This document shows positions 3,674 through 49,537 of a stretch of 64,000 nucleotides of DNA, piece by piece. Source of the DNA: Vairimorpha necatrix. Lineage: Eukaryota. The notes under the pieces were generated by a model. The model saw nothing but the letters and a program-made list of their open reading frames with translations, did not search any database and had not been told where the DNA came from. The DNA is taken from contig CP142730.1 of the NCBI GenBank assembly GCA_036630325.1, forward strand, positions 1,054,001 through 1,118,000, in the 5' to 3' direction. The position numbers and the translations under genes are program-made. Position 1 is the stretch's first letter. Each line of letters starts with the position of its first letter.

Positions 3674-3711
3674 TGCAGGGTTTAGAACCCTTAATAAATA
3701 AATGGTTAACA
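3674..3711 (+). repeat. 3' LTR, 38 bp
   Basis: TGCAGGGTTTAGAACCCTTAATAAATAAATGGTTAACA, one substitution relative to the 5' LTR. Confidence 0.95.
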
Positions 3712-3856
3712 TAAAATTTATTTTTATTTTTTTCATAATTTATTTATATAGTTGAATCGTAAAGAAGAGATAACGATATAGATATAAACATCAATATTTA
3801 CATGGCAAACTATGAAAACATCTTAGAAGTTTTTAATTAAAATTTTTAATATTAAT

Positions 3857-4947
3857 TCAGAAAAAAATTCTCATTGACAAGAGCTTTCTCGATAAATTCT
3901 CTCATATGAGAAAAGTAACCATTTATGACGAATACTTCTGTGTTAAACACGTCCTCAATACAATCAATTAACAAAGGAGTGGTTGTTACATAGAGCTCTC
4001 TGTTTTACTCGGGACTTGAAACTGTTTAAAAACTCCTCGATGGGGTTTAGTTGTGGAGAATAAGGAGGGAGAAGTTTTAGACTGTATCCTTTGTTTCTAA
4101 ATGCAGCAGCTACTTCGGATTTTCTGTGTATAGGTGTGTTATCCAATATTATAAATCTGTTTTCCTCTTGCTCACAAATAGGTAAATTATTGTTATTGAA
4201 TTGACAAAATCTGTAGATTTAAAATTCCGACTTTAGTTTTATGCGCATATAATCCAATAACGCTTATAGCACACATTTAAGAAACATTAGTCCCTTTCGA
4301 ATTCGGGATTGTTACACAACACTTAGTATTTCTTAAAGGATAACCAAAAGTATTGTTAAGGTGCAGATTTAAACCAGGTTTATCGAGAAATAATAAATTA
4401 TCATTTGATATGATATTTATTACTCTCGCATATTGACACCGTAACAGCCTGTTCTGAGGACTGTTTCTACTTAGTGGAATTAAAGTCGGGGTTTAGAACT
4501 ATACCCTATTTTTTTAACAAGTCTGTAAACAGTTGACTTAGAGTAATGTCCCGTGGAATTTAAATTTTGCAATTTATCGGATAAATTATATAGACCTAGA
4601 CAAGGATTACGGGCTATTTTTGTTGCAATAATATTTGAAACCATAGAAATATCTTTTAAAGATTCGCTCTTTTTTTGTCCTGCCGTTTTAAAAGTTAAAG
4701 GTTGGTAAATTCTCCGTAAGATTCTTTTTATATAGGCGTTTAAGGCTAGACTTACTGAGATTTAAAGCAACTTCCATATCAATAAATTTCATACCAGGCC
4801 GAGTAACGAAAGAATTTTCGTTACTCGACCTGGTAATCATCTTCCTGGTTTTTCTTGGGGTAGAAGGTTGCGTTTCATCTTCTATCTTAGCAAATGATCT
4901 TTATCACGATATTCCTTAAGTTCATCTCTGACATTTAGGTTTCTCAT
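3857..4947 (-). pseudogene. Tc1/IS630 DD34E transposase pseudogene
   Basis: Fragment DNTPIH...LLPPYSPQLNPIE. Colinear with 14458-15550, with multiple stops and frameshifts. Confidence 0.88.
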
Positions 4948-5539
4948 ATTTTAAGGGTTAAAAATTTTAAAGGAAAGTAAAATAAATTTTGTGCAAAGGT
5001 GTCTATAAAAATGAAACAAGGTGTCTATAATAATGAATGGGGGTTCTATAAAAAATAAAACAAGGTGTCTATAATAATGAAATGAGGGTTCTATAAAAAT
5101 GAAACAAGGTCTATAAAAATGGAACAAGGTGTCTATAATTATGAAATAAACAGTATATTTATTGTTATTATTGTTGTTGTTCATTCTTTCTAAAATACTT
5201 GCCCTTAAACATATTATTTTTATTTATACAAAAATAATTTCTAGAAAATTCGTTATGATGTCAATAATCTCATGTGGTTTATATCACATTTATATAAAAA
5301 AAATTGACAAAAGTTTCAAAGTATGTGTAACACATATTATCATCATCATTCTTTGTACGTCAAAAAATGTCAAACGTCTCAGTTGATTTTTTATCAATGT
5401 CAAAAATCATTGTTTTTGAAAAATTCGGCGATCGGCCTAAAATTACCACATAGCGCCTAATTTTTCAATACAACAGTTTTTTTTTCTCTAAATTTTTTTT
5501 TGTATAATTTATATGAAAAAATTCTAGTTAGCCCATAAA

Positions 5540-6589
5540 ATGTTTTTAATATTAGATTTAGTATATTGCGCTAATTTAAATCTAGATGCGCACTTAGAAT
5601 GTTCAATTTACAAAAATAGTAATGATACTTCTAATACATCTACTCAAGAAAAGTTTGATAATGAATCACATGCAGAAATTCTTAAACAAAATTCAAATAT
5701 CGATGGTTTAAATTATGAATCTGCTAATGATTTATGTGGTATCACTAATTTCATATTTGAAAATATTATTAATTTTAATATAAACAATGACTATCAAGAT
5801 TTAAATTCTTTAAAGGAAGAAATGGCTAGTACGTATTTAGGTAAAGACTATAACGATTCTTTGGAAATTGACGATATAAATATTATAACAATTGAGTCTC
5901 AAGATGAAGATACAAAATCTTCTCAAACAACGGATAAAGTAGGGGACATACCGCAAAACACCAAAAGTTTAGCCCCCGACAGCTCTTGTTATTTTTTTAC
6001 AGTAAAGGAAAGATTATCTCAGTGTGAGGAAAAAATCAAAACAATTCTTAATAAAGGAAACTTGGAAAAAATTATATTAGAGAAAAAAAATCAAAATGGG
6101 ATAAACGAAAAAATGATCGATAAAGAGATTATGAAATCCTATAATAAAAAATTAACAAAAACCAGATTGCATAATCGTAAACTAAACGTTAAAAATTTAC
6201 GAGCTTATGAAAAAGTATTAAGTGAACCATGGATACCTACAGATATAAAAAACATAATAACTGATTTTATAAGAATTTTCAACTTATTTATAGAAATTTT
6301 TTATATTAATGCAAGACTACCCAAACTGAAAGTAGGATCAGTTGAATCCAGAATCAATATCCAAAATTTCAACATCAAAATTTTTTCCCAATATAAAAAC
6401 ATACCAATTTTAGAAAGTTTTCACTTACTAGAAGATAAATTAGAAACATATGAATACAAATATGTTGAAATTAAATATGTTTTAGAACAGCTTATAACTA
6501 GAATTAAAACGAAATTAACAACCTTGATCCTACACTATAACGAAACTATAAACATTCTTAGAGGGTTGAATCAATTATACTACAATTAA
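5540..6589 (+). CDS. Unknown 349-aa protein, possibly secreted (paralog A)
   Basis: Long ORF with GCCC upstream of the ATG. Short hydrophobic N-terminus MFLILDLVYC, acidic N-half, basic and probably helical C-half. Paralog at 17387. Confidence 0.85.
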   Translation: MFLILDLVYCANLNLDAHLECSIYKNSNDTSNTSTQEKFDNESHAEILKQNSNIDGLNYESANDLCGITNFIFENIINFNINNDYQDLNSLKEEMASTYLGKDYNDSLEIDDINIITIESQDEDTKSSQTTDKVGDIPQNTKSLAPDSSCYFFTVKERLSQCEEKIKTILNKGNLEKIILEKKNQNGINEKMIDKEIMKSYNKKLTKTRLHNRKLNVKNLRAYEKVLSEPWIPTDIKNIITDFIRIFNLFIEIFYINARLPKLKVGSVESRINIQNFNIKIFSQYKNIPILESFHLLEDKLETYEYKYVEIKYVLEQLITRIKTKLTTLILHYNETINILRGLNQLYYN

Positions 6590-8914
6590 TAAACTTCTTA
6601 AATGCGTTTTCTATATTATGTTGTAGTTAAAAATGGCACTTTTTGTAGACTATTTTATTTATTTCTGCAATAAGTTTTACGAGATAATTCAATGAGTAAA
6701 AAATTTAACTTTCGATTTCATCGCATTGAGATAATGGAATGCCGTATAAACATGATAAATGAAATTAGATGTATTTAATTGTTCAGTGTAATACTTGATA
6801 AATCTATACATAGAAAAGTACTCTATTTGAAACTTAATAATTTGCATCTTTGATCTGCATGAAATCAATCGCGGATTATTTTGGATAAGTACAGAAAAAA
6901 GCACCAAATATTACAATATAACAGCTCATGATCACCCGACAACTAAAGAAACTTAATTTTAAATATGGCAATTGCCTCATAAACATGCTAGAACCAAGAA
7001 TACCCTTTAAAGTGCTTGGCTTCGCCAACTTATAACATAAAGATCTTGAAACTATATTTGTAATTTCTTCGATTTTTATGTAAAAAACAATAAAATTCAT
7101 GATTATTAATCGTTAAAAAAATTTTAGAACATAAACAGATCATAAATACACACTTAAAAGGCCGCTACAGTATTTACAAATAAATTTGCAAACGAACTAT
7201 TAAAAACTTTGTTGTATAATATCAATTCTTGTTTATATATATATATATACAAGAAAATGTTTTTTAATAGAAAAATATCTTAATTCTTCATACTAAAACT
7301 TTCCCGCGCATAGGTATTCAATCTTTTCCTCTTCTAAAAATAAAATTACTTATTTTTAATTATACAATTCAATCATATGTTTTTTATTAACTTGACATAT
7401 AATGTAGGAATGAAAGGATCGTTGGATATAATCCTTACAATATCGTCCAAAGCTAAAAAGTTTAGATGTCTATTATATTTATGTATAGTATCTTCTACCA
7501 ATACAATATTGCATAGTAATGTTTTTTATGTGTTTTGTTTGAAAAAAACTGTTTTTACTTGTTAATTATTTTCAAATATATATTTTTAGTAAGTCTAAAT
7601 TTTCTTAATTTAAAGCCTTTGGGTGCAAAGTTTATTGCCGTATTAATTTTTTTTATTTTGACAATTGAGCTCATTATCATCTGTCTTAACAATCTTATTT
7701 TTTCTTGTTTGTTTTCGCCTTCTCTAATCTTTCAAGTTTATCCTTTAAACAATGCTTTATAGAAGTTACATGGAAGGCAATTTGTTTTTCTTATTCTGTT
7801 TCTTATATAGTCACTAAATTTTTTTACTACATTAGAAATCAATATATTCAGATTGAATTCTTTGTAATATTTTCAAAAACTTAAAAAAATCGTACTTGAT
7901 TTTTTTTTCTAAAACGTGTTTGCTTTGGAGCGTAGAAAAAGTAATTTATTGCAGTAAACATACATGGGCTTACCTTTGGGCCTATATTTTCAAAGGGCGT
8001 CTTCCCCGCCTTTTTAGGCTTCAATATGTGTTTTTAGCGTAAACCTTGCCGAAGTGTATCCTTAAGCATAATACATTCTTTTTTATTCTCGTACTTTGAT
8101 TTATTTAATATTTAAAAGTCTTCATATGAACACTCACTGTCCATCAACTAATCTGTTATGAATCAATTTATTTTTTTAGATAAAAAGCTTTAAACGCAGT
8201 GTAATCAGTAGAAATCAAGTTTTTTATAAATAACCATTATTTAAAGCATTTAATCGACTATACAGCTAAAGTTTCTTCCTATGTGATAGTTTACTAATTT
8301 CGCATCTCTAGGTTGCCCGGATACAAATGATATCGATAGTTCTATTCAATTACAAATTTAGTCTAATATTGCATCTAGTCCCAATGATACGTGTAAACAG
8401 TAAAAAAAATTAGATTATAGAATGCTTACAATATGTATAGTATTAAACTCAATGTTTTTTTGTATTATTAATTGGAATTCTTCCCATATATATTGGCATT
8501 TTCCTTTATTAACAGTATTGGAGGACTGCAGATTTCTGCACAGTACAAAAAAACTTCTATGCTAGATGATAATTCCTAGTTTTTTTTAACATCCTTCGAG
8601 TTTTTAGGTCATTTGTAGTAACTAATTCCTTTTGTTCTATATTCTATTGGTTGACTTCTATAATGTAAATTTTTTTGCCATAAATACAAATTAATGCTTC
8701 TAATTGTTATTTTATTTTTTTTTAATAATTGAAATAGATATATTAAACGGTATCTAAAGCTTTTTGATGCTCTCTAATAGTTTTGTAGTGTACTAAAATA
8801 TCGATGACATATAAAAAGCGTGTCTATACACCTATAAATATTAACTTTATTTTTACTTTTAAACGTGTCCTAATATTTTAAACCCGTTTATTAAGTACAT
8901 ATAAATAAATTCCA

Positions 8915-10300
8915 TTAGGGTATACTTATTGTAATTTATATTTTAGTTAAACAAGGATAGGTTCCGCGTTAGGGTCTCCTGCTTGTAGGTGGCTTCTCGT
9001 TTCTATAGTCCTTTCCACATCGGCTTCGTCTCCTCTCCTTCGGTAGTCCAAAGAAATGCTTTCTAGCGTCTTCTATAGCGTGATCATCTGGATATACGCT
9101 TCTACCTTATTAGGATTCTCAAGTCTTGTGGTATAAAATTTGTGAAACTTAGTCACTATACCGTCCTAAGTGATTACGTAGGAAATTATTTCTGTTTAAA
9201 AATCATATATTAGGCCTAATTCGTTCGCGAGGATTCTATACTTTCTTAAATTATCGTTTTCTACTTGCTGTAACACTCTTGTGATGTGACACCTATTTCG
9301 ATTATTCTGATCAATTTGTTCTTTTTATCTACTACGACAATGTCTGGTTTATTATATTTGATCTTTATGTTTTTTTACTGTCGTGTCTATTCTTATTTAC
9401 ATATTTGTTGGCAACTATCTGTTGTACTGAGTGGTTTCTTAATTTCTTCTTATCTGCACTTTATATTTTTCACACAGTAATAGGTAGATACATTTAAAAT
9501 ATCAAAATGCAGTCTCGTATAATCGTGTCCTGGCATTTTTCGCACATTGTCGCTAGATGATCCACGGCCTTTGCTGATTTATTACAATAAAAGCAATTTC
9601 CAATCGATTTATTAAATATATTTCGGTCTTGTAGGGCACATAACTTAATTTCTGTCCTGGTATTCGTGCTACCTACCTCAAGCCACAGTGATGAATTGTT
9701 AATGTCGACTATTTCATATTCTAATGCCTTAAACAACTTTTTATGTTTGTTTTATTATTTATGTTGTTGTATAGGGTATTCTATTGAGCATCCGTCAGTG
9801 GTTTTTGTTCCACATCTATTAGCTTATATTTTTCCTGGACATATGCTTTAATTAGAAAAAAGTGAGTTTTCTTTTTTTTTCTGGCTTAATATAATAGCTC
9901 GTCTTCTGGGGCAGATATTGACCGATTGTTTGAGTCCGTTTTTACTTTAAGTAGCATGCTTTCACTTTTACACACTGCACTAGTAAGTCCTTCCCGACCG
10001 CATCGCAAAGAAAGTATAGCCTTTCTTTTTATGACGGCTGTGAATGACCTATCTGTACGTTCAATGGCATTATAATGAGTCTATCTCAGGTTCTATATCT
10101 AGTACACCAACGTAAAAATTTATAATTTAAATAGCAAATTCGAAAATTGACCTTAAGGTGTTTTTGGCGTTAAGTTTTGTACTACAAATCTAATAAGTAC
10201 ATAATATGTTTTTATTTTATATTTAAGGGCTGTATGTTCTCTGTATGATTGTTTAAGTTTGCCCCCAAAAGCTTCTTATAGATCTATTAGCCAAGTACTG
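8915..10300 (-). pseudogene. Degenerate non-LTR retrotransposon 3' part, restriction-like endonuclease type (R4/Dong-like)
   Basis: LCALQD, CFYC..DHLATMC knuckle, DYTRLH (RHD-like), KPDIVVVDKK..EIGVT..KY (PD-(D/E)xK RLE). Upstream RLY..GKDL resembles RLYxxRxxGGRGL. Upper boundary is approximate. Confidence 0.8.
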
Positions 10301-10627
10301 GTATATAAACATAATTGTATTAATTTATCCGTCAGTCTATAACTTTCTAAATCTACAAGATTATTGAGTTTAATTAAAAACTAGTAAATCTAAAGCTACT
10401 TTCAAACAGCAGGGCTCGCTTTTCTTCCCACGTCAATCAGACTCTATAATACATTTTTTAAGTAACAATCTTCGTAGTTACACTTCCTCTTTCCTTTTCC
10501 AACCTTGTGAAATTATATATAGTCTTTCGACAACATTTCTCTCACATTTAAGTGTTAAATATAAGATAAAATCTTTTATTCCTTTGTTTTTCAAGTACAA
10601 ATTATAAATTTCGATACCTGGATCTGA

Positions 10628-11051
10628 AACGATTCCTTCAGAGGGTATTTACTTTATTTTTCTAACCCCTAAAATATAAGGCAAAACAAGAAAAGCATGC
10701 ACTAGCACTCAAATTACTACTATTATTTAATATTAAAAATACCAAATTTAAATACATAAGTCATAAAATTCAATTTTTAAATCATGTTACAAATATAATG
10801 CGCTTTTTAAATTTCAATGAAGTTTGTTTATAAAAATTAGACACACGTTTTACATTTTAAATTAAATAAGTCGAAATAATTCTAAATATATAGTCTAATT
10901 TATATCTAATAATTTAAAATTGAATTTTATACACAAATGTATTTTTATTTGGTATTTTTAAGATTTAAAGATATCAGTAATGTTTTTCCTTCCTTTTTGC
11001 ACTACATTTTGGGGTTAAAAAAATAAAGTGAACCATCTCCGGGGAGCCGTT
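10628..11051. repeat. Imperfect long inverted repeat or foldback (~170-bp arms); second copy at 22460-22882
   Basis: CTTTATTTTTCTAACCCCTAAAAT pairs with ATTTTGGGGTTAAAAAAATAAAG; TTAAAAATACCAAAT with ATTTGGTATTTTTAA; ATAAAATTCAATTTT with AAAATTGAATTTTAT. Confidence 0.7.
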
Positions 11052-11360
11052 AGAATATCTCGGCCAAAAAATAGGATTTATTATTGAATTTTTTTTACAA
11101 ATAATACAAGAATATAATATTTAAACTTCTACAAAAATTCCATACAAATAATTTATTGATTGTGTCGGTATATATTGAACATATTAACTTAGCATTTTTC
11201 TAATATCATTTCTTTTATTTGTAAGTATACAAAATTAAAAACGAATGTGAAATATACGCCAAAAAAGTTAGAAATAACAGGACTGAAGTCATATAGATTT
11301 AATTGTACAGAAATATGAGATAATAAGAAGGAATCTATTCTATAATAAATTAGAAGAATG

Positions 11361-12435: not shown

Positions 12436-14273
12436 GAAGATTGTATTAAAAGAATTAAGATTTATGATAAATTAAATTACATTAATAAGGCAATTCTAAG
12501 AAAATTTTTTTTAGAAAATAAAATGTATAGGACTAACAAGTAAAATTTTAAATTTTTTCGTTGAAGATAATAGGAGGAAGTTTGAGAACGAGTTGAGACA
12601 AGAAGCACTTAAAGAAATAGATAAATTATTACATAAGATTCGGGGATAAGTACCCAATTCATAAATGAGTATAAACAAGAAGAATTAGAAGTATTTTATA
12701 AAAAGCTGTCCGATATTGTAAAAATACAATTTAGAAGAAGTAGTAAAAGATATTCGATAAAGCTTTACTAGAATAATTTAGGAGTGAAATATTTGTACTG
12801 GATCAGAAGACATTTTTAAGCATAAAGAATATAATATCAAACTTGAATAACAAAGAAATGATAGTAAAAATTTTAGGTATACATGATAGTCTTATAAAAA
12901 AATATTAAGTAATTTACCATGACAATATATACTCTTTAATTTTACATTGTTTTAGTGAAATTGATCATATCTTATGTGTTAAGAAAATGTGGTATTGTCT
13001 CAATTTATAGATATTTAATACAAAGCAAACAAAATAAAATTAAATATTGAAAATAATGTTAAAAAACTTTATAAATTTCTTCCTATATAAATTTGATAAT
13101 ATTAGTTTAAGTTTTACTTCTGCGATTAAAGTTAAAATTGCTCGTTTTAAAATCTTATATGTACTTCTTTTTTAAAATTATTTTCATGAGCATAAATTTA
13201 AGGCTTCTGATATCTTTATATGTCTAATGCTAGAAATGCATGAATAAAAATGTTGATTATGAATGCATTCAAGCAAATGAAAATTTTTAATATACTAACC
13301 AAATATTAATTTGCAAGACAGGCCGCATCATACATTAAATAGTATAAGAAAAGGATATTACATTTACTATGGTTTAATAAGGGTATCTACATAAAATATT
13401 GTTTAGAATGAATATGAAAATAATATAAATCTCAAAACATCAACCAATAAACTGATCTGAACTAATTGAAAAAAAGTGCATGCAAATGACTCTCGTAAAG
13501 TATTAAAATATGTATGCTCATCTTAAATTCATTACTCAATTTGATATGATCCTCTGTATTAATATCAACCCTCAGTTTACAAATACTAATATATTAAATT
13601 TGGTGAACTTCTAAATCTAAAACTAAGGAGCGTTTTTTGTGATTGTCACGTTATGTATGTCTAAGGTCTTTTGAAATATAGTCTGATGCAGCAGATTGAT
13701 AAAAAACTGTATAAAATACATTATCGGAGAATTATATGTAATAAAGTCTTAAATTTATGTTAACTATATAATTCAAAACATATTTAGATCTTTAATCCCT
13801 ATATATAGATTAAAAAATTTTTTAAATTTCACTGACGTTAAGAGATTAGTTCTCAAACTCGAAAAAATTAAAATGCCATTAAATTCCTTTTAAGTTATTT
13901 ACACTATCTAAATATATTAAATTAACTATTTATTAAGAACTTTTGAAATTTACTTTGTAAAATATTTTAAAAAAGCATATACAAGACATATGAAACCGTC
14001 TTTGAGATATTAATTTTATAACTTCAAAAAATTGATAACTTCGATGTCTTCGAATTCGTAAATATATTTATCTTTTAAACACATATCACACGAATTATTT
14101 AAAATCCCTTTCTTAAAAGATATTATAACACATAAATATAAATTATGTATTTGTATTCAGACTGCGTTAGATATATAAAATCGTTTCATAGACATTATCT
14201 GTTTCTAATCTATTGATAAACAAAGAATTTATTATCGTATTTATTGAAAACTTCTTTTTATAACATCTTTTTA

Positions 14274-15842
14274 CAGTCCATTTCATTTTTATAGACACCT
14301 TGTTATAAAATTTATAGACTCCTCATTTTATTAAAGACACCTTGTTATAAAATTTATAGACACCTTATTTCATTTGTATAGAACCCTCATTCATTATTAT
14401 AGAACCCTTGTTCTAAAATTTATTTTACTTTCCATTAAAATTTTTAACCCTTAAAATATGAGAAACCTAAATGTCAGAGAAGAACTTGAGGAATATCGTA
14501 CAGAAGAATCATTTGTCGAGATAGAAGTTGAAATGCAGTCTTCTACCCCAAGAAAACCCAGGAAGATGATTACCAGGTCGATAATCGAAAGTTTTCTTTC
14601 GTTACTCGACACTGGTATGAAACTTATTGATATGGAAGTTGCTTTAAATCTCAGCAAGTCTAGCCTCACACGCCTATATAAAAGATATCTTACAGGAGAT
14701 TTTACCAACCTTTCAACTTTTAAAACGGCAGGACAAAAAAAGAGTGAATTTTTAAAAGATATTTCTATGGTTTCAATTATTATTGCAACGGAAATAGCCC
14801 CGAATCCTCGTCTAGGTCTTTATAATTTATCCGATAAATTGCAAAATGTAAATTCCACGGGACATTACTAAAAGTCAACTGTTTGCAGACTTGTTAAAAA
14901 ATTGGGGTATAGTTCTAAAACCCCGACCTTGATTCCACTAGGTAGTAACAGTCCTCAGAACAAGCTGTTAAGGTCTCAATATGCGAGAGTAATAAATATC
15001 ATATTAAATGATAATTTAATATTTCTCGATGAAACTGGTTTAAATCTGCACCTTAATACTTTTGGTTATTCTTTAAGAAATACTAAGTGTTGTGTAACGG
15101 TCCCGAATTCTGAAGGGACTAATGTTTCGTTAATGTGTGCTATAAGCGTTAATGGATTATATGAGCATAAAACTAAAGTCGGAAGTTTTAAATCTACAGA
15201 TTGTCGAATTCATTAACAACTATTTACCTATTTGTGAGCAAGGGGAAAACAGAATTTTAATATTGGATAACGCATCTATACACAGAACATCCGAAGTAGC
15301 TGCTGCATTTAGAAACAAAGGATACAGTCTAAAACTTCTCCCTCCATATTCTCCACAACTAAACTCCATCGAGAAGTTTTTTAACAGTTTCAAGTCCAGA
15401 GTAAAACAGAGACCTAGACCAACAACCACTCCTTTGTTAATTGATTGTATTGAGGGCGTGTTGAACACAGAAGTATTCGTCATGGATGGTTACTTTTCTC
15501 ATATGAGAGAATTTATCGAGAAAGCTCTTGTCAATACGGATTTTTTCTGAATTAATGAAATTAAAAAATTTAATTTAAAATTTCTAGGATGTTTTCATTG
15601 TTTGGCATGTAAATATTGATGTTTATATCTTTATCATTGTCTCTTCTTCGCGATTCAACTATATAAATAAATTATGAAAAAAATAAAAATAAATTATATA
15701 ACAAGGTGTCTATAAATTTTATAACAAGGTGTCTATAAATTTTATAACAAGGTGTCTATAAAAATAAAATGAGTTGTCTATAAAAATGAAACAAGGTTTC
15801 TATAATTATAAAACAAGGTGTCTATAAAAATGAAATGGACTG
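14274..15842 (+). mobile_element. Tc1/IS630-family DNA transposon copy 2 (full length)
   Basis: 31-bp perfect TIRs CAGTCCATTTCATTTTTATAGACACCTTGTT, TA on both sides, subterminal repeat arrays. Confidence 0.95.
14458..15550 (+). pseudogene. DD34E transposase with one in-frame stop (14869-14871) and a frameshift near 15200
   Basis: HTH-like N-terminus; FLDETG; LDNASIH with 34 residues between D and E (YSPQLNSIE); AACCCTT upstream of the ATG. Confidence 0.9.
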
Positions 15843-17386
15843 TATATCCTATTCTTCTCTTTAGTTGTATTGTTTTTTGTAACATATTTATCATTTAAAA
15901 ATTCAAATAAAAACTTTAATTAATAGTCCTCTTTTTACAACAGCAATTGCAAAATGTAAAAAATAAACACAAAGTTCGATGATTTACTCAAAAATTTTTA
16001 TATTAATACAATAATAAAAGTTTGATTGTAAAGTGAATATTTATATATTTAGTACCACGTACCCCTATACTGCTAGTGATGACGCTCTACAATGTTGTAG
16101 AATAATTATTTTAATTTAATTGTCTCTATTTTCTTTTACACCTCTTGTGTTTATCTCTCATTATCTCTTCTTTTGTATCTTTTTTATGAAAAAAATTTCT
16201 AAATTTTCTAAAAAATTGACACATCTTAGAAAAACAGTCCATAGTATTTGTAAGAATCATATGTATCATTGTTAAAAATTGTACGCAATAAAAAATGTAA
16301 AATCATAATCTATAAATTTATTAAAATATGTTGTAATAAAAAAACTTCGGAGTTCGAGTAGAAAAAGATCATAAAAAGTGTTGCTTTCGTTTTCTACATA
16401 ACAATGAAGCACTAAAATTTATAAGTTAGGCAGACAAAAATATTCGACTATTTCTACATTGAAAAAAAGATATTATGAAATAGCTAAAAATTAAAATTTA
16501 CAGTATATTTTTAATGTCGCTATAATTATTAAGTATTTTTTATAATTTTAATTTTGTAAAATATTCAAAATGTTTACCTATTATATACGAAATTTGCTTT
16601 AAAGATCTTTAAATTTTACAATAAATGTTAAAATGCAATACGGGTCTTAGATAGAACACATATTTCACACTCTAAAATCAATGCTCTAAGAAAGGAAAAT
16701 TTTACATATATTATGTCTAATTGTTGCAACATAAAATTAAAATTTTGTATCTAACAATATAGTTATTATATCTTTTAAATTATAGGTTCAAATGGTTTTG
16801 TCTTGATCTTGCTCCTCCTTTTTGCCTTAATTTTATATGTTAATGAGAAAACCAAAACTCTTTTGGAAGTGTTTGCTACTTTCTACCAAAAACTATAAGT
16901 ATTTGATCGCAAAAAATCAACCATAATTGGTTTCTATGCAAATTGTTTTAACGTGCCAGGAAATGTACATTTTCTTTTTTATGAACATCTTTCGGGGTAT
17001 ATCTAAATATTACTGTTTCGAATTTGTCTCTACACAATAATCTTGAAAATTTATAAACATACCAGTTAAAAGTTAAGTGTTAATTACTCACGATACACTT
17101 CTTGTAGTAATTTGCTTGCATACTTTTTAGAAAATATTTATATAAAAAAATTGACAAAAGTTTCAAAATATGTGTAAACACATAATATCATCATAATTCT
17201 TTGTACGTCGAAAAATGTCAAACGTCTCAGTTGATTTTGTATCAATGTCAAAAATCATTGTTTTTGAAAAATTTGGCGATCGGCCTAGATTTACCGCATA
17301 GCGCCTAATTTTTCAATACAACAGTTTTTTTTTCTCTAAATTTTTTTTGTATAATTTATATAAAAAAATTCTAGTTAGCCCATAAA

Positions 17387-18439
17387 ATGTTTTTAATATT
17401 AGATTTAGTATATTGTGCTAATTTAAATCTAGATGCGCACTTAGAATGTTCAATTTACAAAAATAGTAATGATACTTTTAATACATCTACTCAAGAAAAG
17501 TTTGAACATGAATCACATGCAGAAATTTTTAAACAAAATTCAAATATTGATGGTTTTAATTATGAATCTGCTAATGATTTATATGGTATTACTAATTTTA
17601 TAGTTGAAAGCTTTACTAATTTTGATATAAACAATGACTATCAAGATTTAAATTCTTTAAAGGAAGAAATGGGGAGTACGTATTTAGGTAAAGACTATAA
17701 CGATTTCATGGAAATTGACGATATAAATATTATAACAATTGAGTCTCAAGATGAATATACAAAATCTTCTCAAACAACGGATCAAGTAGGGGACATCCCG
17801 CAAAACACCAAAAGTTCAACCCCCGAAAGCTCTTGTTATTTTTTTACAGTAAAGGAAAGATTATTTCAGTGTGAGGAAAAAATCAAAACAATTCTTAATA
17901 AAGGAAACTTGGAAAAAATTATATTAGAGAAAAAAAATCAAAATGGGATAAACGAAAAAATGATCGATAAAGAGATTATGAAATCCTATAATAAAAAATT
18001 AACAAAAACCAGATTGCATAATCGTAAACTAAACGTTAAAAATTTACGAGCTTATGAAAAAGTATTAAGTGAACCATGGATACCTACAGATATAAAGAAC
18101 ATAATAACTGATTTTATAAGAATTTTCAACTTATTTATAGAAATTTTTAATATTAAGGCAAGAATGCCCAAACTGAATGTAGGATCAGTTGAATCCAGAA
18201 TCAATATCCAAAATTTCAACATCAAAATTTTTTCCCAATATAAAAACATACCAATTTTAGAAACTCTAAACTTGTTGGTAAGCAAATTAGAAACATATAA
18301 ATACGAAAATATATTAATTAAACATAATATACGAAGGCTTATAACTAGAATTAAAACGAAATTAACAACCTTGATCCTACGCTATAACAAAACTATAAAC
18401 ATTCTTGAAGAGTTGAATCAATTATACTACAACCAATAA
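17387..18439 (+). CDS. Unknown 350-aa protein, possibly secreted (paralog B)
   Basis: Paralog of 5540-6589; about 43 amino acid differences by manual count. Confidence 0.85.
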   Translation: MFLILDLVYCANLNLDAHLECSIYKNSNDTFNTSTQEKFEHESHAEIFKQNSNIDGFNYESANDLYGITNFIVESFTNFDINNDYQDLNSLKEEMGSTYLGKDYNDFMEIDDINIITIESQDEYTKSSQTTDQVGDIPQNTKSSTPESSCYFFTVKERLFQCEEKIKTILNKGNLEKIILEKKNQNGINEKMIDKEIMKSYNKKLTKTRLHNRKLNVKNLRAYEKVLSEPWIPTDIKNIITDFIRIFNLFIEIFNIKARMPKLNVGSVESRINIQNFNIKIFSQYKNIPILETLNLLVSKLETYKYENILIKHNIRRLITRIKTKLTTLILRYNKTINILEELNQLYYNQ

Positions 18440-20759
18440 ACTATTTAAATGCGTTTTCTATATTATGTTCTAGTTAAAAATGGCACTTTGCGTAGACTAT
18501 TCTATATATTTCTGCAATAATTTTTACGAGATAATTCAATGAGTAAAAATTTAACTTACGATTTCATCGCATTGAGATAATGGAATGCCGTATAAACATG
18601 ATAAATGAAATTAGATGTATTTATTTGTTCAGTGTAATACTTGATCAATCTACACATAGTAAAAGTACTCTATTTGAAATTAATAAATTTCATCCTTTGA
18701 TCTGCATGAAATCAATCGCGGATTATTTTGGATAAGTACAGAAACAAGCACCAAATATTACAATATAACAGCTCTTGATCATCCGACAAATAAAGAAACT
18801 TAATTTTAAATGAGGCAATTGCCTTATAAACATGCTAGAACCAAGAATACCCTTTAAAGTGCTTGGCTTTGCCAACTTATAACATAAAGATCCTGAAACT
18901 ATATTTGTAATTTCTTCGATTTTTATGTAAAATACAATAAAATTCATGATTATTAATCGTTTAAAAATTTTAGAACATAAACAGATCATAAATACACACT
19001 TAAAAGGCCGCTACAGTATTTACAAATAAATTTGCAAACGAACTATTAATAACTTTGTTGTATAATATCAATTCTTGTTTCTATATATATACAAGAAAAT
19101 GTTTTTTAATAGAAAAATATCTTAATTCTTCATACTAAAACTTTCCCGCGCATAGCTATTTAATATTTTCCTCTTCTAAAAATAAAATTACCTAATTTTA
19201 ATTATACAATTCAATCATATGTTTTTTATTAACTTGACATATAATGTAGGAACGAAAAGGATTGTTGGATATAATCCTTACAATATCGTCCAAAGCTAAA
19301 AAGTATAGATGTCTATTATATTTATGTATAGTATCTTCTACCAATACAATATTACATAGTAATGTTTTTATGTGTTTTGTTTGAAAAAAAAATTTTTACT
19401 TGTTAATTATTTTCAAATGAATATTTTTAGTAAGTCTAAATTTTCTTAATTTAAAGCCTTTGGGTGCAAAGCTTATTGCCGTATTAATTTTTTTTATTTT
19501 GACAATTGGGCTCATTATCAACTCTCTTAACAATCTTATTTTTTTTTTCTTGTCTGTTTTCGCCTTCTCTCATCTTTCAAGTTTATCCTTTAAACAATGC
19601 TTTATAGAAATTAAATAAAGGCAAATTTGTTTTCTAATTCTGTTTCTTATATAGACACTAAATTTTTTTTACTACTCTAAAAATCAATATATTAAGATTG
19701 AATTCTTTGTATATTTTCAAAAACTTAAAAAAATTCGTACTTGATTTTTTTTTCTAAAACGTGTTTGCTTTGGAGCGTAGAAAAAGTAATTTATTGCAGT
19801 AAACATACATGGGCTTACCTTTGAGCCTATATTTTCAAAGGGCATCTTCCCCGCCTTTTTAGGCTTCAATATGTGTTTTTAGCGTAAACCTTGCCGAAGT
19901 GTATCCTTAAGCATAATACATTCTTTTTTATTCTCGTACTTTGATTTATTTAATATTTAAAAGTCTTCATATGAACACTCACTGTCCATCAACTAATCTG
20001 TTATGAATCAATTTATTTTTTTAGATAAAAAGCTTTAAACGCAGTGTAATCAGTAGAAATCAAGTTTTTTATAAATAACCATTATTTAAAGCATTTAATC
20101 GACTATACAGCTAAAGTTTCTTCCTATGTGATAGTTTACTAATTTCGCATCTCTAGGTTGCCCGGATACAAATGATATCGATAGTTCTATTCAATTACAA
20201 ATTTAGTCTAATATTGCATCTAGTCCCAATGATACGTGTAAACAGTAAAAAAAAATTAGATTATAGAATGCTTACAATATGTATAGTATTAAACTCAATG
20301 TTTTTTTGTATTATTAATTGGAATTCTTCCCATATATATTGGCATTTTCCTTTATTATCTGTTTTAGAGGACTGCAGATTTCTGCACAGTACAAAAAAAA
20401 ACTTCTATGCTAGATGATAATTCCTAATTTAATAACATCCTCCGAGTTTTTAGGTCATTTGTAGTAACTAATTCCTTTTGTTCTATATTCTATTAGTCGA
20501 CTTCTATAATGTAAATTTTTTTGCCTAAAATACAAATTAATGCTTTCAATTGTTATTTTATCTTTTTTTAAACATTGAAATAGATATATTAAACGGTATC
20601 TAAAGCTTTTTGATGCTCTCTAATAGTTTTGTAGTGTACTAAAAGATCGATGACATATAAAAAGCGTGTCTATACACCTATAAATATTAACTTTATTTTT
20701 ACTTTTAAACGTGTCCTAATATTTTAAACCCGTTTAATAAGTACATATAAATAAATTCC

Positions 20760-22130
20760 ATTAGGGTATACTTATTGTAATTTATATTTTAGTTAAACAA
20801 GGATAGGTTCCGCGTTAGGGTCTCCTGCTTGTAGGTTGCTTTATGTTTCTATAGTCCTTTCCACATCGGCTTCGTCTCCACTCCTTCGGTAGTCCAGAGA
20901 AATGCTTTCTAGCGTCTTCTTTTGCAATTTGTCTGGGTATCCGCTTTTACCTTATTAGGATTCTCAAGTCTTGTGGTATAAAATTTGTGAAACTTAGTCA
21001 CTATACCGTCCTAAGTGATTACGTAGGAAATTATTTCTGTTTAAAAATCATATATTAGTCCTAATTCATCCTCGAGGATTCTATACTTTCTCAAAATAAC
21101 GTTTTCTACTTGCTGTAACACTCTTGTGATGTGACATCTATTTCGATTATTCTTTTTATCTACTACGACAATGTCTGGTTTATTATATTTGATCTTTATG
21201 TTTTTTTACTATCGTGTCTATTCTTATTTACATCTTTGTTGGCAACTATCTGTTGTACTGAGTGGTTTCTTAATTTCTTCTTATCTGCACTTTATATTTT
21301 TCACACAGTAATAGGTAGATACATTTAAAATATCAAAATGCAGTCTCGTATAATCGTGTCCTGGCATTTTTCGCACATTGTCGCTAGATGATCCACGGCC
21401 TTTGCTGATTTATTACAATAAAAGCAATTTCCAATCGATTTATTAAATATATTTCGGTCTTGTAGGGCACATAACTTAATTTCTGTCCTGGTATTCGTGC
21501 TACCTACCTCAAGCCACAGTGATGAATTGTTAATGTCGACTATTTCATATTCTAATGCCTTAAACAACTTTTTATGTTTGTTTTATTATTTATGTTGTTG
21601 TATAGGGTATTCTATTGAGCATCCGTCAGTGGTTTTTGTTCCACATCTATTAGCTTATATTTTTCCTGGACATATGCTTTAATTAGAAAAAAGTGAGTTT
21701 TCTTTTTTTTTCTGGCTTAATATAATAGCTCGTCTTCTGGGGCAGATATTGACCGATTGTTTGAGTCCGTTTTTACTTTAAGTAGCATGCTTTCACTTTT
21801 ACACACTGCACTAGTAAGTCCTTCCCGACCGCATCGCAAAGAAAGTATAGCCTTTCTTTTCATGACGGCTGTGAATGACCTATCTGTACGTTCAATGGCA
21901 TTATAATGAGTCTATCTCAGGTTCTATATCTAGTACACCAACGTAAAAATTTATAATTTAAATAGCAAATTCGAAAATTGACCTTAAGGTGTTTTTGGCG
22001 TTAAGTTTTGTACTACAAATCTAATAAGTACATAATATGTTTTTATTTTATATTTAAGGGCTGTATGTTCTCTGTATGATTGTTTAAGTTTGCCCCCAAA
22101 AGCTTCTTATAGATCTATTAGCCAAGTACT
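20760..22130 (-). pseudogene. Degenerate RLE-type non-LTR retrotransposon (duplicate of 8915-10300)
   Basis: Same motifs; the 80-aa ORF at 21325-21567 is identical to that at 9494-9736. Confidence 0.8.
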
Positions 22131-23631
22131 GGTATATAAACATAATTGTATTAATTTATCCGGGCAGTCTATAACTTTCTAAATCTACAAGATTATTGAG
22201 TTTAATTAAAAACTAGTAAATCTAAAGCTACTTTCAAACAGCAGGGCTCGCTTTTCTTCCCACGTCAATCAGACTCTATAATACATTTTTTAAGTAACAA
22301 TCTTCGTAGTTACACTTCCTCTTTCCTTTTCCAACCTTGTGAAATTATATATAGTCTTTCGACAACATTTCTCTCACATTTAAGTGTTAAATATAAGATA
22401 AAATCTTTTATTCCTTTGTTTTTCAAGTACAAATTATAAATTTCGATACCTGGATCTGAAACGATTCCTTCAGAGGGTATTTACTTTATTTTTCTAACCC
22501 CTAAAATATAAGGCAAAACAAGAAAAGCATGCACTAGCACTCAAATTACTACTATTATTTAATATTAAAAATACCAAATTTAAATACATTAGTCATAAAA
22601 TTCAATTTTTAAATCATGTTACAAATATAATGCGCTTTTAAATTTCAAAGAAGTTTGTTTATAAAAATTAGACACACGTTTTACATTTTAAATTAAATAA
22701 GTCGAAATATTTCTAAATATATAGTCTAATTTATATCTAATAATTTAAAATTGAATTTTATACACAAATGTATTTTTATTTGGTATTTTTAAGATTTAAA
22801 GATATCAGTAATGTTTTTCCTTCCTTTTTGCACTACATTTTGGGGTTAAAAAAATAAAGTGAACCATCTCCGGGGAGCCGTTAGAATATCTCGGCCAAAA
22901 AATAGGATTTATTATTGAATTTTTTTTTACAAATAATACAAGAATATAATATTTAAACTTCTACAAAAATTCCATACAAATAATTTTTTGATTGTGTCGG
23001 TATATAATGAACATATTAGCTTAGCATTTTTCTAATATTATTTCTTTTATTTGTAAGTTTACAAAATTAAAAACGAATGTGAAATAGACGCCAAAAAAGT
23101 TAGAAATAACAGGACTGAAGTCATATAGATTTAATTGAAAGAAATATGAGATAATAAAAACGATTTCTCATAATTAGCAAGAAGATTGTATTAAAAGATT
23201 TATGATAAAGTCAAATTATCATAAAAGCTTAATTCCTAATTTATACGATGATGATACAATTAGGAAATATGAGGGTAAAGAATTAAAGATAATATTTCAA
23301 ATAAGATCTGGGAGTAAGCAAACAATTTATGAACGAGAAGTAGTTTAAATTATTTGGGAATGATAAAAAGTGTCAAAGAAATGTCTAAACTTGAACCATA
23401 GAAAGAAACATTAAAGTAAAAATCTAAAGTGTTTTTAAGCCTATAAAATTATTCTTCTCTAAATTTGTAAACAATTATTCAAAATATTAAACAAAAGTAC
23501 ACATGATAAATAATATGTAATTTCTTTTAAATATGTTTACTTTTTGGATTTTTTCATTTTCTTGAGTTTATTTGTTTGCGCTTTATTTTTTTTAGCCCTT
23601 TTTCTATAAATACAATTTTTCTTGTTAACCC

Positions 23632-44758: not shown

Positions 44759-45183
44759 TAAGGGGAAGAAAGAAAAAATTATCTAAATAAAAATTAATAA
44801 ATTTTGAAGTAGGAATTTAATATTTTTATAATGTTTATTAAAACTTCCAGAATCATATGATATTTGTTATTATTTGATTTTTTACTAATTCTTGTGCGTT
44901 TTATATTGAAGCCGCTAGGAATCAATTAAAATTACATCTTGTCGAATCTTTATATAACAATTAGAATTTATTAACTTGATTTAGAAATAATCAATTGTAT
45001 ACTTGGCTAATATTAGTAAACACTACTATAAACAAGTAAAATAATTATTGATGATCTATCAACATAAATAAAATGTTCAAATTTATGACATAAGGAAGTC
45101 AATTTTAGTGATAAATTGATTTGTTTTTAACCCATAAAAAAGAACATGTTTAAATTGAACAAAATTTTATTTTTTTTATATAT

Positions 45184-48100
45184 TGTTAACCATTTATTTA
45201 TTAAGGGTTCTAAACCCTACATCCCCCCTCCAGACGGGTAGTCTCTCCATCTTCTAAACAACTCTTCCTTATCTCTTTCAAATCATAATGCCTCTTTTTA
45301 ACAATTTTACCATCCAGTAGTCTCACAATATATGAATCATTTTCACTTATAGCTACGATCCTTCCGCGACCCGTGAATCTTCCCTTGTCTGTTTTCGCAC
45401 GTGTACCTAAATTTTCTCTCCTAGCGATTCTTACCTCTTGGCCTACTGTAAATGTCTCTCTGTGTCTTCTCTTGAACCGACCAGCATATTTTCCATTTTC
45501 ATCATTTTCAATTATAACTTCAGCAGTTTGATCTCTCCACGCTTCCATCGGCGTACATTTTATTGCTGTATGTAGTGTATTATTATATCCTTTGATTGCT
45601 CTTTCTATCTTTCCAGAAATATTCCCATCATTTTGCTTTATCAATGTCTCTCTTATAGTTCTGATGCATCTCTCGATTCTACCATTACTCCTATGAGCTT
45701 CTAAGCCCACTTTCCTATGTTTAATATCATTAATACTACACCATTCTTTAAATCTATTACTTACAAACTCTTTTCCGTTGTCTGTCACATATTCCTCTGG
45801 AAATCCATCTTCCCTTATCCACTTTTGTAATACCTCTATAACTTCACTACTCTCTTTACATCTCAAATTCGAACCCCACAACCTTCTAGTAAAGTAATCA
45901 ATACCCAGTAACACATACCTATTCTCTCCACCTATGTCCATTAAATCCAACGCCACTTTCTCCAATTTCTTTCTAGTTACTACGAAATCACATCCTCCTG
46001 TGTTTTTCCTATTGTTAATCCCACATATTTCACAATTCTTAATTACCTTATTAATATGATCTTTCATACCAGGCCAATACCATCTTTGTTTAATGTTATA
46101 ATAAGTGCCTTTGACACCTCTATGGTTTAACTCCTCATGTACTCTTGTTATTTCATGTTCTCTACTATCTAGGCTCAATATCTCTTTCACCTCACCTGTG
46201 GAAAATTCCCAATACTGTTTACCGTCCTTTTCTTTAATATGTTTCTGCTTTTTTCCCAATATTTGTTTTTCGATCACTTCTTTTCTCTTGTTGTCCTTTT
46301 CTTTTTGTTCATCCGAAACTTCTACCTGATCATACTGCCTACTTAACGCATCTGCATCTGTCATCAACTCCCCTTTCACATACTCTATTGTAAAGTCAAA
46401 CTCTTGTATCTGTTCTACCCATCTGTTTATTCTGTTATTATTGAAGTATGGCTTATTTCTGATCTCTGCTAATGCTTTATGATCCGTCATCAAATGAAAT
46501 TTCCTTCCTCTCAAATCACTTTCAAACTTCTTTATTCCAAAAAACACCGCCAACATCTCCTTCTCACTTATCGTATATCTTCGCTCGGTAGGAGTCAACA
46601 TTTTCGATGCCCATTGTATCGGAATCCACTCACCCTCTTTATTTTCTTGTAATAGAATTGCTCCGATCCCCGTATCACACGCATCAGTTCTTACTCTAAA
46701 TAGCTTTTTTCCGTCCGGAATCTTCAACTTTTTCATATCTCTCAAGCCTTGCTTCATATCCTCAAAAGCTCTTTCCATATCCTCCGTCCAATTCCACTTA
46801 ACATCTTTCTTTAAAGCCTCAGTAAGCCTTACTGTTCTATACGCATAGTTGGGAATAAAGTCTCTAAACCAACCAGTTAGTTCTAAAAATCTTCTTAACT
46901 CTCTAACATTCTCAGGTTTTCCATATTCCAATGTCTCCTGCTTTTTAATCTCATTCGGTCCCATGACCTCCCCATTAATTGTTACTCCCAGCAACATCAC
47001 CTCATCTTTTTTGTATTGTATCTTTGTTTGGTTTATTCTCAACCCACACTCTTTAAACTTTTTAATTACCCTCTCTAGTAACTCGTCATGCACTCTTACG
47101 TCTTTACCATGAATAACTATATCATCCATATATACTTCCCCGCCTTTACCTCTGAATTCATCTAAAACTCTGTTCATTACTCTCTGCATTATATGAGGCG
47201 AATTCTTAAACCCCATAACCATACTATTCCATTCGTATACTCGACCATTCACTTCAAATGCTGTTTTGTGCTTATGGTGCTCCTCAATCTCAATATGATA
47301 AAACCCTTCTTTTAAGTCGATAACCGTAAATACTTTTGACCCCTGTGTGGCTCTCATAATATCCTTAATTAACGGTAGTGAGTACGGGTCCTTGTCAACC
47401 AAATCGTTTAACGCCATCAAATTGCTTACCAATCTTACGTCCCCATTTGGGTTTTCAAGTGCTCTTATTGGACTCCTCCACTCACTTTTGGAACGTCTTA
47501 TAACCCCTCTATTTTCCAACTTATTCAAGTACTCCTCAAATTTCACCCTAAGGTAGTATGGCACATTCTGCCCTCTTTTCACAACCTTTTCACCTTGCTT
47601 AGTATTTATTGGACACTTCTCTCCTGTGAGATATTTTATCTTTTCTTCTGATTCTTTAAAAACTTCCGGATACTTTTCAATTAAATTTTCTAACTTATTT
47701 ACTGTTTTACATCTTTTCCCTTCATTGTTGATAATTGGTTCTTTCTGTAAAACTTGTTCCTTTTTAATTTTATATTTTTCCCTACCAGCTACACTTTCAT
47801 GACATTCTCTAGCGTAATGCCCTTCTTTCTTACATATAAAACATTTTGTAGTTTCTCTGATTTTTCTTCTTTTCCTATACATCCTAAGATTTTCTTTTCT
47901 TTCTTCCCTAAACTCTTTCAACACTTTATCCATAATCTCTTTAATCATTTCTTGTCTTTCTTCTGACTCTCTCTCAAATTCTGCTCCTTTTTGTAAGCCT
48001 TTATAAATTTCCTCCCAACTGCTCCTTCCGTCACAAAAATTTTCAAAAATATAATCCTGCAAGTTCGCAGATGCCAAATCCATAACATCTTTCCACTCAA

Positions 48101-48258
48101 CTTTCTCAACTTTCAATATTAACTTTAGTCTCTTATCTATCCTAATTGACTCTTTCTCTAATGTTCTAGCCTCTTGACTACGGGACTCTCTTGTTTCCCT
48201 GTTCATCCTTGTGTTCGCCATGTTAACCATTTATTTATTAAGGGTTCTAAACCCTACA
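45184..48258 (-). mobile_element. Miniature Ty3/gypsy LTR retrotransposon copy 2 (identical 38-bp LTRs, TSD TATAT)
   Basis: LTRs at 45184-45221 and 48221-48258. TATAT at 45179-45183 and 48259-48263. PPT GGAGGGGGGA. Confidence 0.96.
45210..48230 (-). CDS. Uninterrupted 1006-aa Gag-CCHC-RT-RNaseH-IN polyprotein with no recognisable protease
   Basis: ATG lies inside the 5' LTR and TAG inside the 3' LTR. All RT, RNase H and integrase catalytic motifs are present. Confidence 0.95.
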   Translation of the reverse strand: MVNMANTRMNRETRESRSQEARTLEKESIRIDKRLKLILKVEKVEWKDVMDLASANLQDYIFENFCDGRSSWEEIYKGLQKGAEFERESEERQEMIKEIMDKVLKEFREERKENLRMYRKRRKIRETTKCFICKKEGHYARECHESVAGREKYKIKKEQVLQKEPIINNEGKRCKTVNKLENLIEKYPEVFKESEEKIKYLTGEKCPINTKQGEKVVKRGQNVPYYLRVKFEEYLNKLENRGVIRRSKSEWRSPIRALENPNGDVRLVSNLMALNDLVDKDPYSLPLIKDIMRATQGSKVFTVIDLKEGFYHIEIEEHHKHKTAFEVNGRVYEWNSMVMGFKNSPHIMQRVMNRVLDEFRGKGGEVYMDDIVIHGKDVRVHDELLERVIKKFKECGLRINQTKIQYKKDEVMLLGVTINGEVMGPNEIKKQETLEYGKPENVRELRRFLELTGWFRDFIPNYAYRTVRLTEALKKDVKWNWTEDMERAFEDMKQGLRDMKKLKIPDGKKLFRVRTDACDTGIGAILLQENKEGEWIPIQWASKMLTPTERRYTISEKEMLAVFFGIKKFESDLRGRKFHLMTDHKALAEIRNKPYFNNNRINRWVEQIQEFDFTIEYVKGELMTDADALSRQYDQVEVSDEQKEKDNKRKEVIEKQILGKKQKHIKEKDGKQYWEFSTGEVKEILSLDSREHEITRVHEELNHRGVKGTYYNIKQRWYWPGMKDHINKVIKNCEICGINNRKNTGGCDFVVTRKKLEKVALDLMDIGGENRYVLLGIDYFTRRLWGSNLRCKESSEVIEVLQKWIREDGFPEEYVTDNGKEFVSNRFKEWCSINDIKHRKVGLEAHRSNGRIERCIRTIRETLIKQNDGNISGKIERAIKGYNNTLHTAIKCTPMEAWRDQTAEVIIENDENGKYAGRFKRRHRETFTVGQEVRIARRENLGTRAKTDKGRFTGRGRIVAISENDSYIVRLLDGKIVKKRHYDLKEIRKSCLEDGETTRLEGGCRV

Positions 48259-49537
48259 TATATTAATAATTTTGTCCTACATGTTAGTCTAAAAAATTTT
48301 TAATTGTTTGCTTTTTTCCTAACTTATGTAGAATTCAAGGTGAACTATATTAATATTTTATTCATTTGTATGAATTAAATTGAATATTTTACCACGTTCA
48401 AGAAAAAAACAAAATAAAGAATTAATAAAAACAATATTCTTAACAGATAAAAAAATATCTTCAAAGGTTAAGTAAGTTTCCCGTTTCTGTAAGATTTTTA
48501 TAACGGCAAATTACTTTTCTAGATATCGTCTACCATTAGCACTGTCATTTGAAAGTGAGCTTATCCTTTTTAAGCATTCAAGATAAAAAAAAAATTTTCA
48601 TCAAAAATTGATAAATAATCTATAACTTATATGATCAAATACAAAGATCTTTGTATTTTTTTCTAAGGTAATTTGTATCTATACAGTTTCAGGCCAAAAT
48701 TTATGGTGATATTTTTTCTTTGAGCAAATTTCATAACTATACATCAAAACTTCATATATTTAAAAACAAAGATAGTCATGGTAAGACAACACGTTACAAG
48801 TTTTATTCTTTAGTTGCTCTACAAAAAGAAGGGTTTCGTTAAAAAAATAGTGCATGCTTCAAAAACCTACAGAACAGTCAGTTTAAATATTGTTATTAGT
48901 TGTTTATAAATTTTTTTTTTTGCACTTTCGTATTTTCATCACATTAAAAAAATTTAGTTTGGCCGTTTGAGAATAATCTATTAATGATGGATTTGACATG
49001 TCGATGAAATACTTAATATTATAAGCAAGACAATAGTGATTTAATGTCTATTAGAATCTTAGAACATTGGTGCAAGACTAAAACGTCCTCGATGAGGTTG
49101 TTTTGTTTCTGTAAAATTTCCTCACATGTTTTTTAAACAATCATCAAGCCCATATTAATTTAACCAATAAACTTGACAAACAAACTAGTTTTAAAAATAC
49201 ATTTCAAATTATGTAAAAAAAGATTACAAAGTCCGGAGTGAGCTATAAAAGCGAAGCACGAAAAATTAAAATGACTAAGTAAAAATATAACTAATTATAG
49301 TCGTTCATTGCGAAAAATTTTACAGTTGTGTGGCAGAGAAAAATCTATAAATTACTAATTTAAATGCAATCATTATTTCTGTATCGGCATATTTTTGATT
49401 TTTTTACTTAATATAATTAGTGTAAAAATTTTATAATTCTAAAGATTTTGAATTTAAAAAGCCAAAATAGACCCAAAATATTCTAATTTATGAAAGAAAA
49501 ACGTATACTTATATATTATTAGAAGTAATAATCTTTA

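Follow-up and report, generated by a model that had tools for sequence, protein, structure and literature searches.

A compact Ty3/gypsy-derived retrotransposon with 38-bp long terminal repeats and no recognisable protease from a Vairimorpha-type microsporidian

Protease processing and a Gag shell are regarded as required for long terminal repeat (LTR) retrotransposons as well as for retroviruses. The TRIM and SMART miniatures are short-repeat LTR elements that code for no enzymes. Microsporidian Ty3/gypsy elements were reportedly described by Xu et al. in 2006 as Nbr1-8 of Nosema bombycis. The Ty elements are summarised as being 5.4-6.2 kb long with LTRs of 251-371 bp and, in Ty1-4, two open reading frames (ORFs), and the LTRs of the Tf elements as being 349-358 bp (PMC7175516). 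Three microsporidian gypsy groups, each with one polyprotein, were distinguished by Parisot et al. (2014; PMC4202319), whose Table S1 lists retro L of Anncaliia algerae at 3127 bp with an LTR of 50 bp, and an LTR of 45 bp for retro S; retro L falls in microsporidian group 1, beside Nbr5. Here we describe an element with two copies in a 64,000-nucleotide stretch (the window) of contig CP142730.1, positions 1,054,001 to 1,118,000 of the forward strand, in the Vairimorpha necatrix assembly GCA_036630325.1. It is a microsporidian gypsy element with a single polyprotein ORF, as in Parisot group 1, has LTRs of 38 bp, and belongs to a lineage in which no protease was recognised and Gag is reduced. 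It is this protease-less, reduced-Gag lineage that is surprising to a specialist, the tiny LTR being only a modest step beyond the tabulated 45-50 bp.

Copy 2 occupies 45184-48258 on the minus strand (3075 bp), has two identical 38-bp LTRs with TG..CA ends and is flanked by a 5-bp target site duplication (TSD), TATAT, which is read from the window letters at 45179-45183 on the 3' side of the element and at 48259-48263 on its 5' side. Copy 1 (638-3711, plus strand, 3074 bp) has a TSD of its own, TAAAA, and an LTR pair with one mismatch. The two copies are 99.5% alike, differing by 14 substitutions and one deletion, and copy 1 is broken, codon 941 of its coding frame being a stop, with one base deleted further downstream. 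The paired copies, their repeats and their separate TSDs had been put forward in a preliminary description of the window and were confirmed from its letters. A scan of the window for further LTR-like matches, with up to 11 mismatches allowed, found none, and there is no solo LTR within it.

Comparison was made with four of 18 sequencing runs, all four in the form of assembled contigs. The flanks in run X1 differ from the window at scattered positions and X1 is therefore another strain or a close relative. A single X1 contig (depth 3.6, with a short side of 44 letters and one extra T) links position 45177 directly to 48258, skipping 3080 bases, that is the 3075 bp of the element plus 5 bp. This junction is the pre-insertion site, carrying one copy of the TSD. 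The element is also present in X1, where two contigs cover 45193-48238 without a gap and with eight other letters. At the 15 differences between the copies X1 agrees with copy 1 at eight and with copy 2 at seven, so that each copy must carry private changes. Copy 2 has eight, two of which (N260 and E450) lie in nearly invariant alignment columns, and its open frame is therefore no proof of function. Depth in X1 is about 61-65 over the element as against 3-6 on the flanks, which suggests many copies, though it is not a copy number. Loose contig ends just behind the element's 5' end carry a further flank in run X2 and a copy-1-like flank in run X3, and the X2 junction, at the same element end, counts in favour of mobility. 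Mobility in the present form thus follows from the two TSDs, the empty site in X1, the intact catalytic residues described below and the defined ends, and the earlier proposal that the element integrated twice in this form is borne out. The element is almost certainly a Ty3/gypsy-derived LTR retrotransposon in a microsporidian of the Vairimorpha type, and one that is still mobile, being reverse-transcribed and integrated by enzymes of its own.

A sequence search for relatives listed 120 matches, of which the best 50 form a close group that includes members from N. granulosis and V. necatrix; 17 of these 50 are proteins of 976-1040 amino acids (aa) on contigs of 3035-3283 bases. LTRs at related loci measure 38 bp in L008 (3' end only), 46-47 bp in L009 and L010 (one end each) and 49 bp in L005 (3' end only), and L008, in which the 38-bp 3' LTR is homologous, encodes a protein with 66% amino-acid identity to the query. 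These observations bear on the idea that the element is a deletion derivative of something larger, or an assembly artefact, in which the shortness of the LTR and the absence of a protease would both be accidental. The private changes in both copies and the broken frame of copy 1 would fit such an origin, but the empty site skips exactly the element and its TSD, the X1 contigs run through the element uninterrupted, and both the LTR length and the overall size recur in relatives. We regard this explanation as highly improbable and as already largely refuted; in particular, the element is not a deletion derivative of one with longer LTRs. L008, L009 and L010 are retrotransposons of microsporidian type; the small contigs that carry them are filed in bacterial metagenome-assembled genomes, where they were probably mis-binned.

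The single ORF (45210-48230, 3021 nt; all coordinates of copy 2 features are on the minus strand) encodes 1006 aa comprising a short Gag, reverse transcriptase (RT), RNase H and integrase, with no protease. It runs from position 29 of the 5' LTR to a stop codon at positions 10-12 of the 3' LTR, as had been proposed. Pfam matches in the protein are to the zinc knuckle, RT, RNase H and integrase. The CCHC zinc knuckle at residues 130-143 (47802-47843) is found by Pfam and by alignment, and is followed by a charged linker of about 38 aa (47691-47801) at the place of the protease in relatives. The RT (46791-47690) has D305 and the YMDD motif at 367-370, the RNase H (46335-46709) has D516, E558, D583 and D627, and the integrase (45276-46163) has the HHCC motif, D762-D817-E853 and a conserved C-terminal part; the catalytic residues of all three enzymes are thus present. 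Between the query and L008 the proportions of nonsynonymous (pN) and synonymous (pS) differences are 0.15 and 0.80 in the RT-RNase H region and 0.22 and 0.77 in the integrase, with synonymous sites saturated, and from these comparisons the three enzymes are judged to be kept under purifying selection. The element therefore lies outside the TRIM/SMART definition. The best match among solved structures is Ty3 Gag-Pol (E 1e-61 over RT-RNase H, weaker over the knuckle and integrase stretches), and the order RT, RNase H, integrase goes with a Ty3-type RT. Like Ty3 of Saccharomyces cerevisiae the element has TG..CA ends, a candidate primer-binding site (PBS), a polypurine tract and a 5-bp TSD, within the 4-6 bp canonical for Ty3/gypsy; unlike Ty3 it is only 3.1 kb long, with one ORF, a Gag of about 145 aa and no protease found. 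The element descends from Ty3/gypsy and behaves like one at the level of its ends and enzymes, but because it lacks the expected protease it is not filed as a canonical Ty3/gypsy (Metaviridae) member.

The query has no Pfam aspartic protease and no D[ST]G ahead of the RT, and neither of the other two frames is open there. Nor is a protease among the 25 Pfam families listed for 33 aligned members of the lineage. Candidate relatives were up to 1761 aa long, so that protease-bearing relatives were not shut out by length. In 38 of 39 knuckle-bearing proteins of the clade the linker between knuckle and RT is 27-111 aa, and in the remaining one 171 aa, with a protease motif in none; the outgroup proteins with a knuckle (n=25) have linkers of 138-466 aa, 20 of them with D[ST]G. 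Single-ORF sisters from a further search gave a Pfam protease in all nine tested, some weakly. In a tree of RT-RNase H with 69 rows, 43 protease-less rows lie on one side of a branch (99/93), nested within 26 protease-bearing rows, and a single change is found in 99% of bootstrap trees. Some protease-status labels in this tree were assigned by hand from linker and alignment results, and its root is approximate, the chosen outgroup not forming one side of any branch. Left out of it were sister-search proteins above 1450 aa, rows with fewer than 330 aligned residues, 17 rows that nearly duplicate a single fungal element, most of the distant outgroups and 14 rows of unset protease status, mostly N-truncated; an earlier tree that retained these 14 placed seven of them inside the protease-less branch. 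On this phylogenetic evidence we judge that the protease was lost a single time, long ago, in this lineage, across which RT-RNase H identity to the query falls to about 38-42%. A viral contig collection was searched for relatives and none was found.

Gag is reduced as well. It measures about 145 aa in the query and ends at residue 113-193 in 29 proteins of the group. Structure models (pLDDT 83) place helices at residues 7-38, 46-52 and 55-66 and a long helix at 72-127, and the helical domain at about residues 7-95 (47946-48212), which continues into the long helix, is probably one capsid lobe. Positions 19-86 of the Gag profile match the first lobe of sister Gags weakly (best E 6e-6, then about 1e-3, in a set of 13 sequences), and profile comparison found no counterpart of their second lobe in the Gag of the query group. 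The second lobe, about half of the capsid protein, has thus apparently been lost. The earliest-branching protease-less rows (P0044, P0139 and P0046) have longer Gags in which the second lobe appears by eye to be kept, which suggests that the protease was lost first and the capsid lobe later, in the core group. Fold searches with the Gag model remained at background, with Arc lobes at Z 5.1-5.2 and the Ty3 capsid N-domain at Z 4.8, below unrelated helical bundles; for a 96-residue model the highest Z, 6.7, was with unrelated proteins, and none of the 50 rows listed was a capsid. Foldseek with the Gag models returned nothing at E 0.001, and an Atlas search returned Gag-like clusters at 0.82-0.84 only, a lead. 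The preliminary description had not noticed this larger departure, in which the protease and, it appears, a capsid lobe have been lost. In L001 (50-310) and L002 (1092-1352) an RNase H piece of another element stands in frame before the Gag of a lineage member.

The 1006-aa polyprotein is most likely to act uncleaved and in cis, a reading to which we give about an even chance. The zinc knuckle would bind the polyprotein's own RNA in cis and the long Gag helix would serve its oligomerisation; a tRNA would anneal at the coding PBS, and the fused RT-RNase H-integrase would copy the RNA and then integrate the cDNA, with a reduced particle taking the place of the normal Gag shell. Put more broadly, and more tentatively, this may be an autonomous LTR lineage needing neither protease nor conventional capsid, in which one uncleaved protein of about 1000 aa copies and integrates a 3.1-kb genome via 38-bp LTRs and, in many families, internal polyadenylation yields extra Gag.

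The suggestion of extra Gag comes from a motif, N-K-x4-Y, which 17 of 41 proteins of the group have no more than 45 aa from the knuckle, as against 3 of 600 background windows. Of 39 further proteins with a knuckle two have it; these are protease-bearing sisters, in which it stands before the protease. At the DNA level N-K reads AATAAA in L001, L005 and retro L, with TA 12 bases on, and the decayed L005 has a stop codon there; this spacing is the same as that between AATAAA and the final CA in the 38-bp LTR. AAT AAA codons at the motif in three of three DNAs compare with six of 15 background N-K pairs, a difference too weak for a decision. A poly(A) site after the knuckle could supply a Gag-only protein in part of the lineage: the TA of the Tyr codon would lie 12 nt beyond the AATAAA of N-K, and the poly(A) tail would complete UAA. 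The motif may act at the RNA level, as an internal poly(A) site that gives rise to a stop and so to Gag by itself, or else be a cleavage site. A search of 1253 candidates for Gag-only proteins that stop before the Tyr gave one protein, a 286-aa fragment running into the RT, which neither supports nor refutes the idea. Its relevance to the query is reduced in that the query has only an ATTAAA, in frame within the charged linker (47763-47768), followed by TTA 12 bases later, and L008 has neither signal. Near positions 82-118 of L005, before the decayed element, is a 37-base near-perfect palindrome with TG..CA ends, unlike the 3' LTR of that locus.

Several points weigh against an uncleaved, autonomous element. 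Protease mutants of Ty1 and Ty3 fail to transpose, and we know of no precedent for an uncleaved Gag-RT-integrase. The evidence consists of DNA contigs and sequence comparison, copy 2 may be inactive in view of E450 and N260, and the capsid-lobe interpretation depends on a weak match for which structure searches gave no confirmation. The query and its four closest relatives are without N-K-x4-Y, which might in any case be a cleavage site instead of an RNA signal. Finally, Tf1, Tf2 and Ty5, which like the query encode Gag and Pol in one ORF, have a polyprotein that is cut by their own protease (PMC7175516).

If cleavage does occur, it may be carried out by another element. The RNA and polyprotein could enter particles of protease-bearing gypsy elements in the same genome, whose protease would free RT and integrase. 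There is precedent for such hitchhiking in BARE2, a Gag-less element that travels in BARE1 particles; it is reduced like the query, but is a subfamily bound to one helper (PMC3735527). Single-ORF sisters with a protease do exist, N-K-x4-Y precedes the protease in two of them, and in the lineage the motif is mostly followed by a hydrophobic residue, resembling a retropepsin site. Yet the query is without this motif, the linker between RNase H and integrase is charged, and all three enzymes have been retained through the deep radiation of the lineage. Furthermore, Gags of the lineage are only about 15-55% identical to that of the query and barely match those of the sisters, a poor fit with co-assembly. 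We consider dependence on a helper possible but doubtful. A host protease could also cut the polyprotein, the remaining cycle being ordinary, and the retropepsin-fold protein Ddi1 and the proteasome are candidates. A single loss followed by long survival would then be explained without a specific helper, and the conserved linker motif would be accounted for, but this motif is missing in 24 of the 41 clade proteins, the query included, and host cleavage appears unlikely.

The cis signals of the element are packed into very little DNA. The 5' LTR (48221-48258) has a 6-bp hairpin at LTR positions 4-19, CCC at 15-17 and ATG at 29-31, and in the 3' LTR (45184-45221) the stop codon at 10-12 is followed by AATAAA at 20-25 and 24-29. 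Microsporidia have 5' untranslated regions of <7 nt, a CCC motif and AAUAAA/AUUAAA signals (PMC2803860), and of 12 host ORFs 9 have CCC shortly upstream of the ATG. The 38-mer could serve as both promoter and poly(A) site, the CCC standing shortly ahead of the start codon in its 5' copy and the AATAAA beyond the stop codon in its 3' copy; 38 bp would be sufficient because host signals are equally small. The repeat R would be roughly 10-16 nt, with almost no U5. Directly after the 5' LTR is a candidate PBS (48207-48220), which begins with TGG and is in frame, as is the polypurine tract (45222-45231), which reads LEGG; both had been described as coding, and they are. A tRNA gene search of the window found none, and the candidate PBS is recognised by the TGG that follows the LTR. 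Self-priming of the Tf1 type was set aside by eye, the LTR pairing with the PBS over a few bases at most. The last A of the LTR and the TG of the candidate PBS make a second ATG. Among 42 relatives, 23 have a residue before the corresponding M[AG], which in 20 of the 23 is H, D, Y or N, as required by a repeat ending in ACA; eight start at that M and 11 are without the motif. The residues after this ATG vary in the alignment of relatives (AN, AS, AT, AP, GA), a variation suggesting that families differ in their primer tRNA. Upstream of the purine tract lies a conserved 14-base nucleotide motif, GAGACTACCCGTCT (45232-45245), nearly letter-identical in L005, L008, L010 and retro L whether coding or not, and likely to be a cis signal; its pairing with the 5' region extends over six bases only, which is chance level. 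Many relatives end the ORF before the purine tract, with the motif at that place read in different frames. The passage of the ORF through both LTRs, to which attention had been drawn, is real in the query, but extension into the 3' LTR is common without being general and looks incidental, a missing stop and not a requirement.

The comparison with Anncaliia elements that had been called for was made by eye with retro L. Its LTR is 49 bp by our count (50 listed) and its ORF, at 32-3049, begins in the 5' LTR. Like the query it has the same LTR/PBS junction, the same Gag start, the 14-base motif before the purine tract, and about 65 aa from knuckle to RT with no protease motif; unlike the query, with its 38-bp LTR, it has a longer repeat and an ORF that stops before the purine tract. 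By eye, retro L thus appears to be of this lineage and likewise without protease. Among 50 complete consensuses of Parisot et al. (PMC4202319) the median LTR is 191 bp, and the ORF begins within the 5' LTR in 43 of them and finishes within the 3' LTR in 30, with 26 showing both; compaction across the lineage is thus partly on record already in that supplement. The main text of the article remarks only on the single polyprotein and does not contain the word 'protease'. The case for a novel architecture is weaker for this: tiny LTRs and LTR-overlapping ORFs had been listed for An. algerae, and 38 bp is only modestly shorter than the 45-50 bp given there. The consensus of retro N, listed as incomplete in File S1 of the same study, opens with a TG..ACA stretch of about 34 bases and then TGG, and this stretch may be an even shorter LTR. 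A literature search, outside which lay most subscription journals, Xu et al. (2006) and Repbase, found no description of a protease-less gypsy lineage or of a 38-bp LTR; the terms LTR, gypsy and protease are all absent from PMC7313128, and the match to 'protease-less' in PMC13149256 is irrelevant.

The microsporidian host proposed for this DNA is upheld by TFIIE-beta in the window, whose closest named matches are in Vairimorpha bombi (68%), V. ceranae (65%) and Nosema granulosis (50%). The nearest element, P0003 of N. granulosis, is 86% identical in RT-RNase H as against the 50% of TFIIE-beta for that species, a contrast that makes horizontal transfer possible. The window also contains a direct duplication of 6 kb (5288-11332 and 17136-23163, 96%) carrying an ORF of 349-350 aa, and an inverted duplication of 1.4 kb (3711-5124 and 14281-15699, 89%) that starts at the edge of copy 1. 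Short AT-rich tandem repeats lie at 430-640, 4980-5150, 14270-14430 and 15690-15850; copy 1 is inserted beside one such array, and a similar junction is seen in run X3. Six ORFs of 304-324 aa between 38770 and 61253 have no clear Pfam family; three are related at the DNA level and two begin with signal-peptide-like stretches, and copy 2 lies 425 bp upstream of one of the six.

Software that finds LTR elements usually sets a minimum LTR length of 100 bp. This family would be missed at such a setting, and counts of repeats in microsporidia may therefore be low. The small size of the element, 3.1 kb and one ORF, would allow direct tests in yeast or in vitro. A 38-bp LTR would imply strand transfer over roughly 10-16 bases and so a lower bound on cis signals, and a lineage that spread after a single loss of its protease would likewise provide a lower bound on the machinery that an LTR retrotransposon needs.

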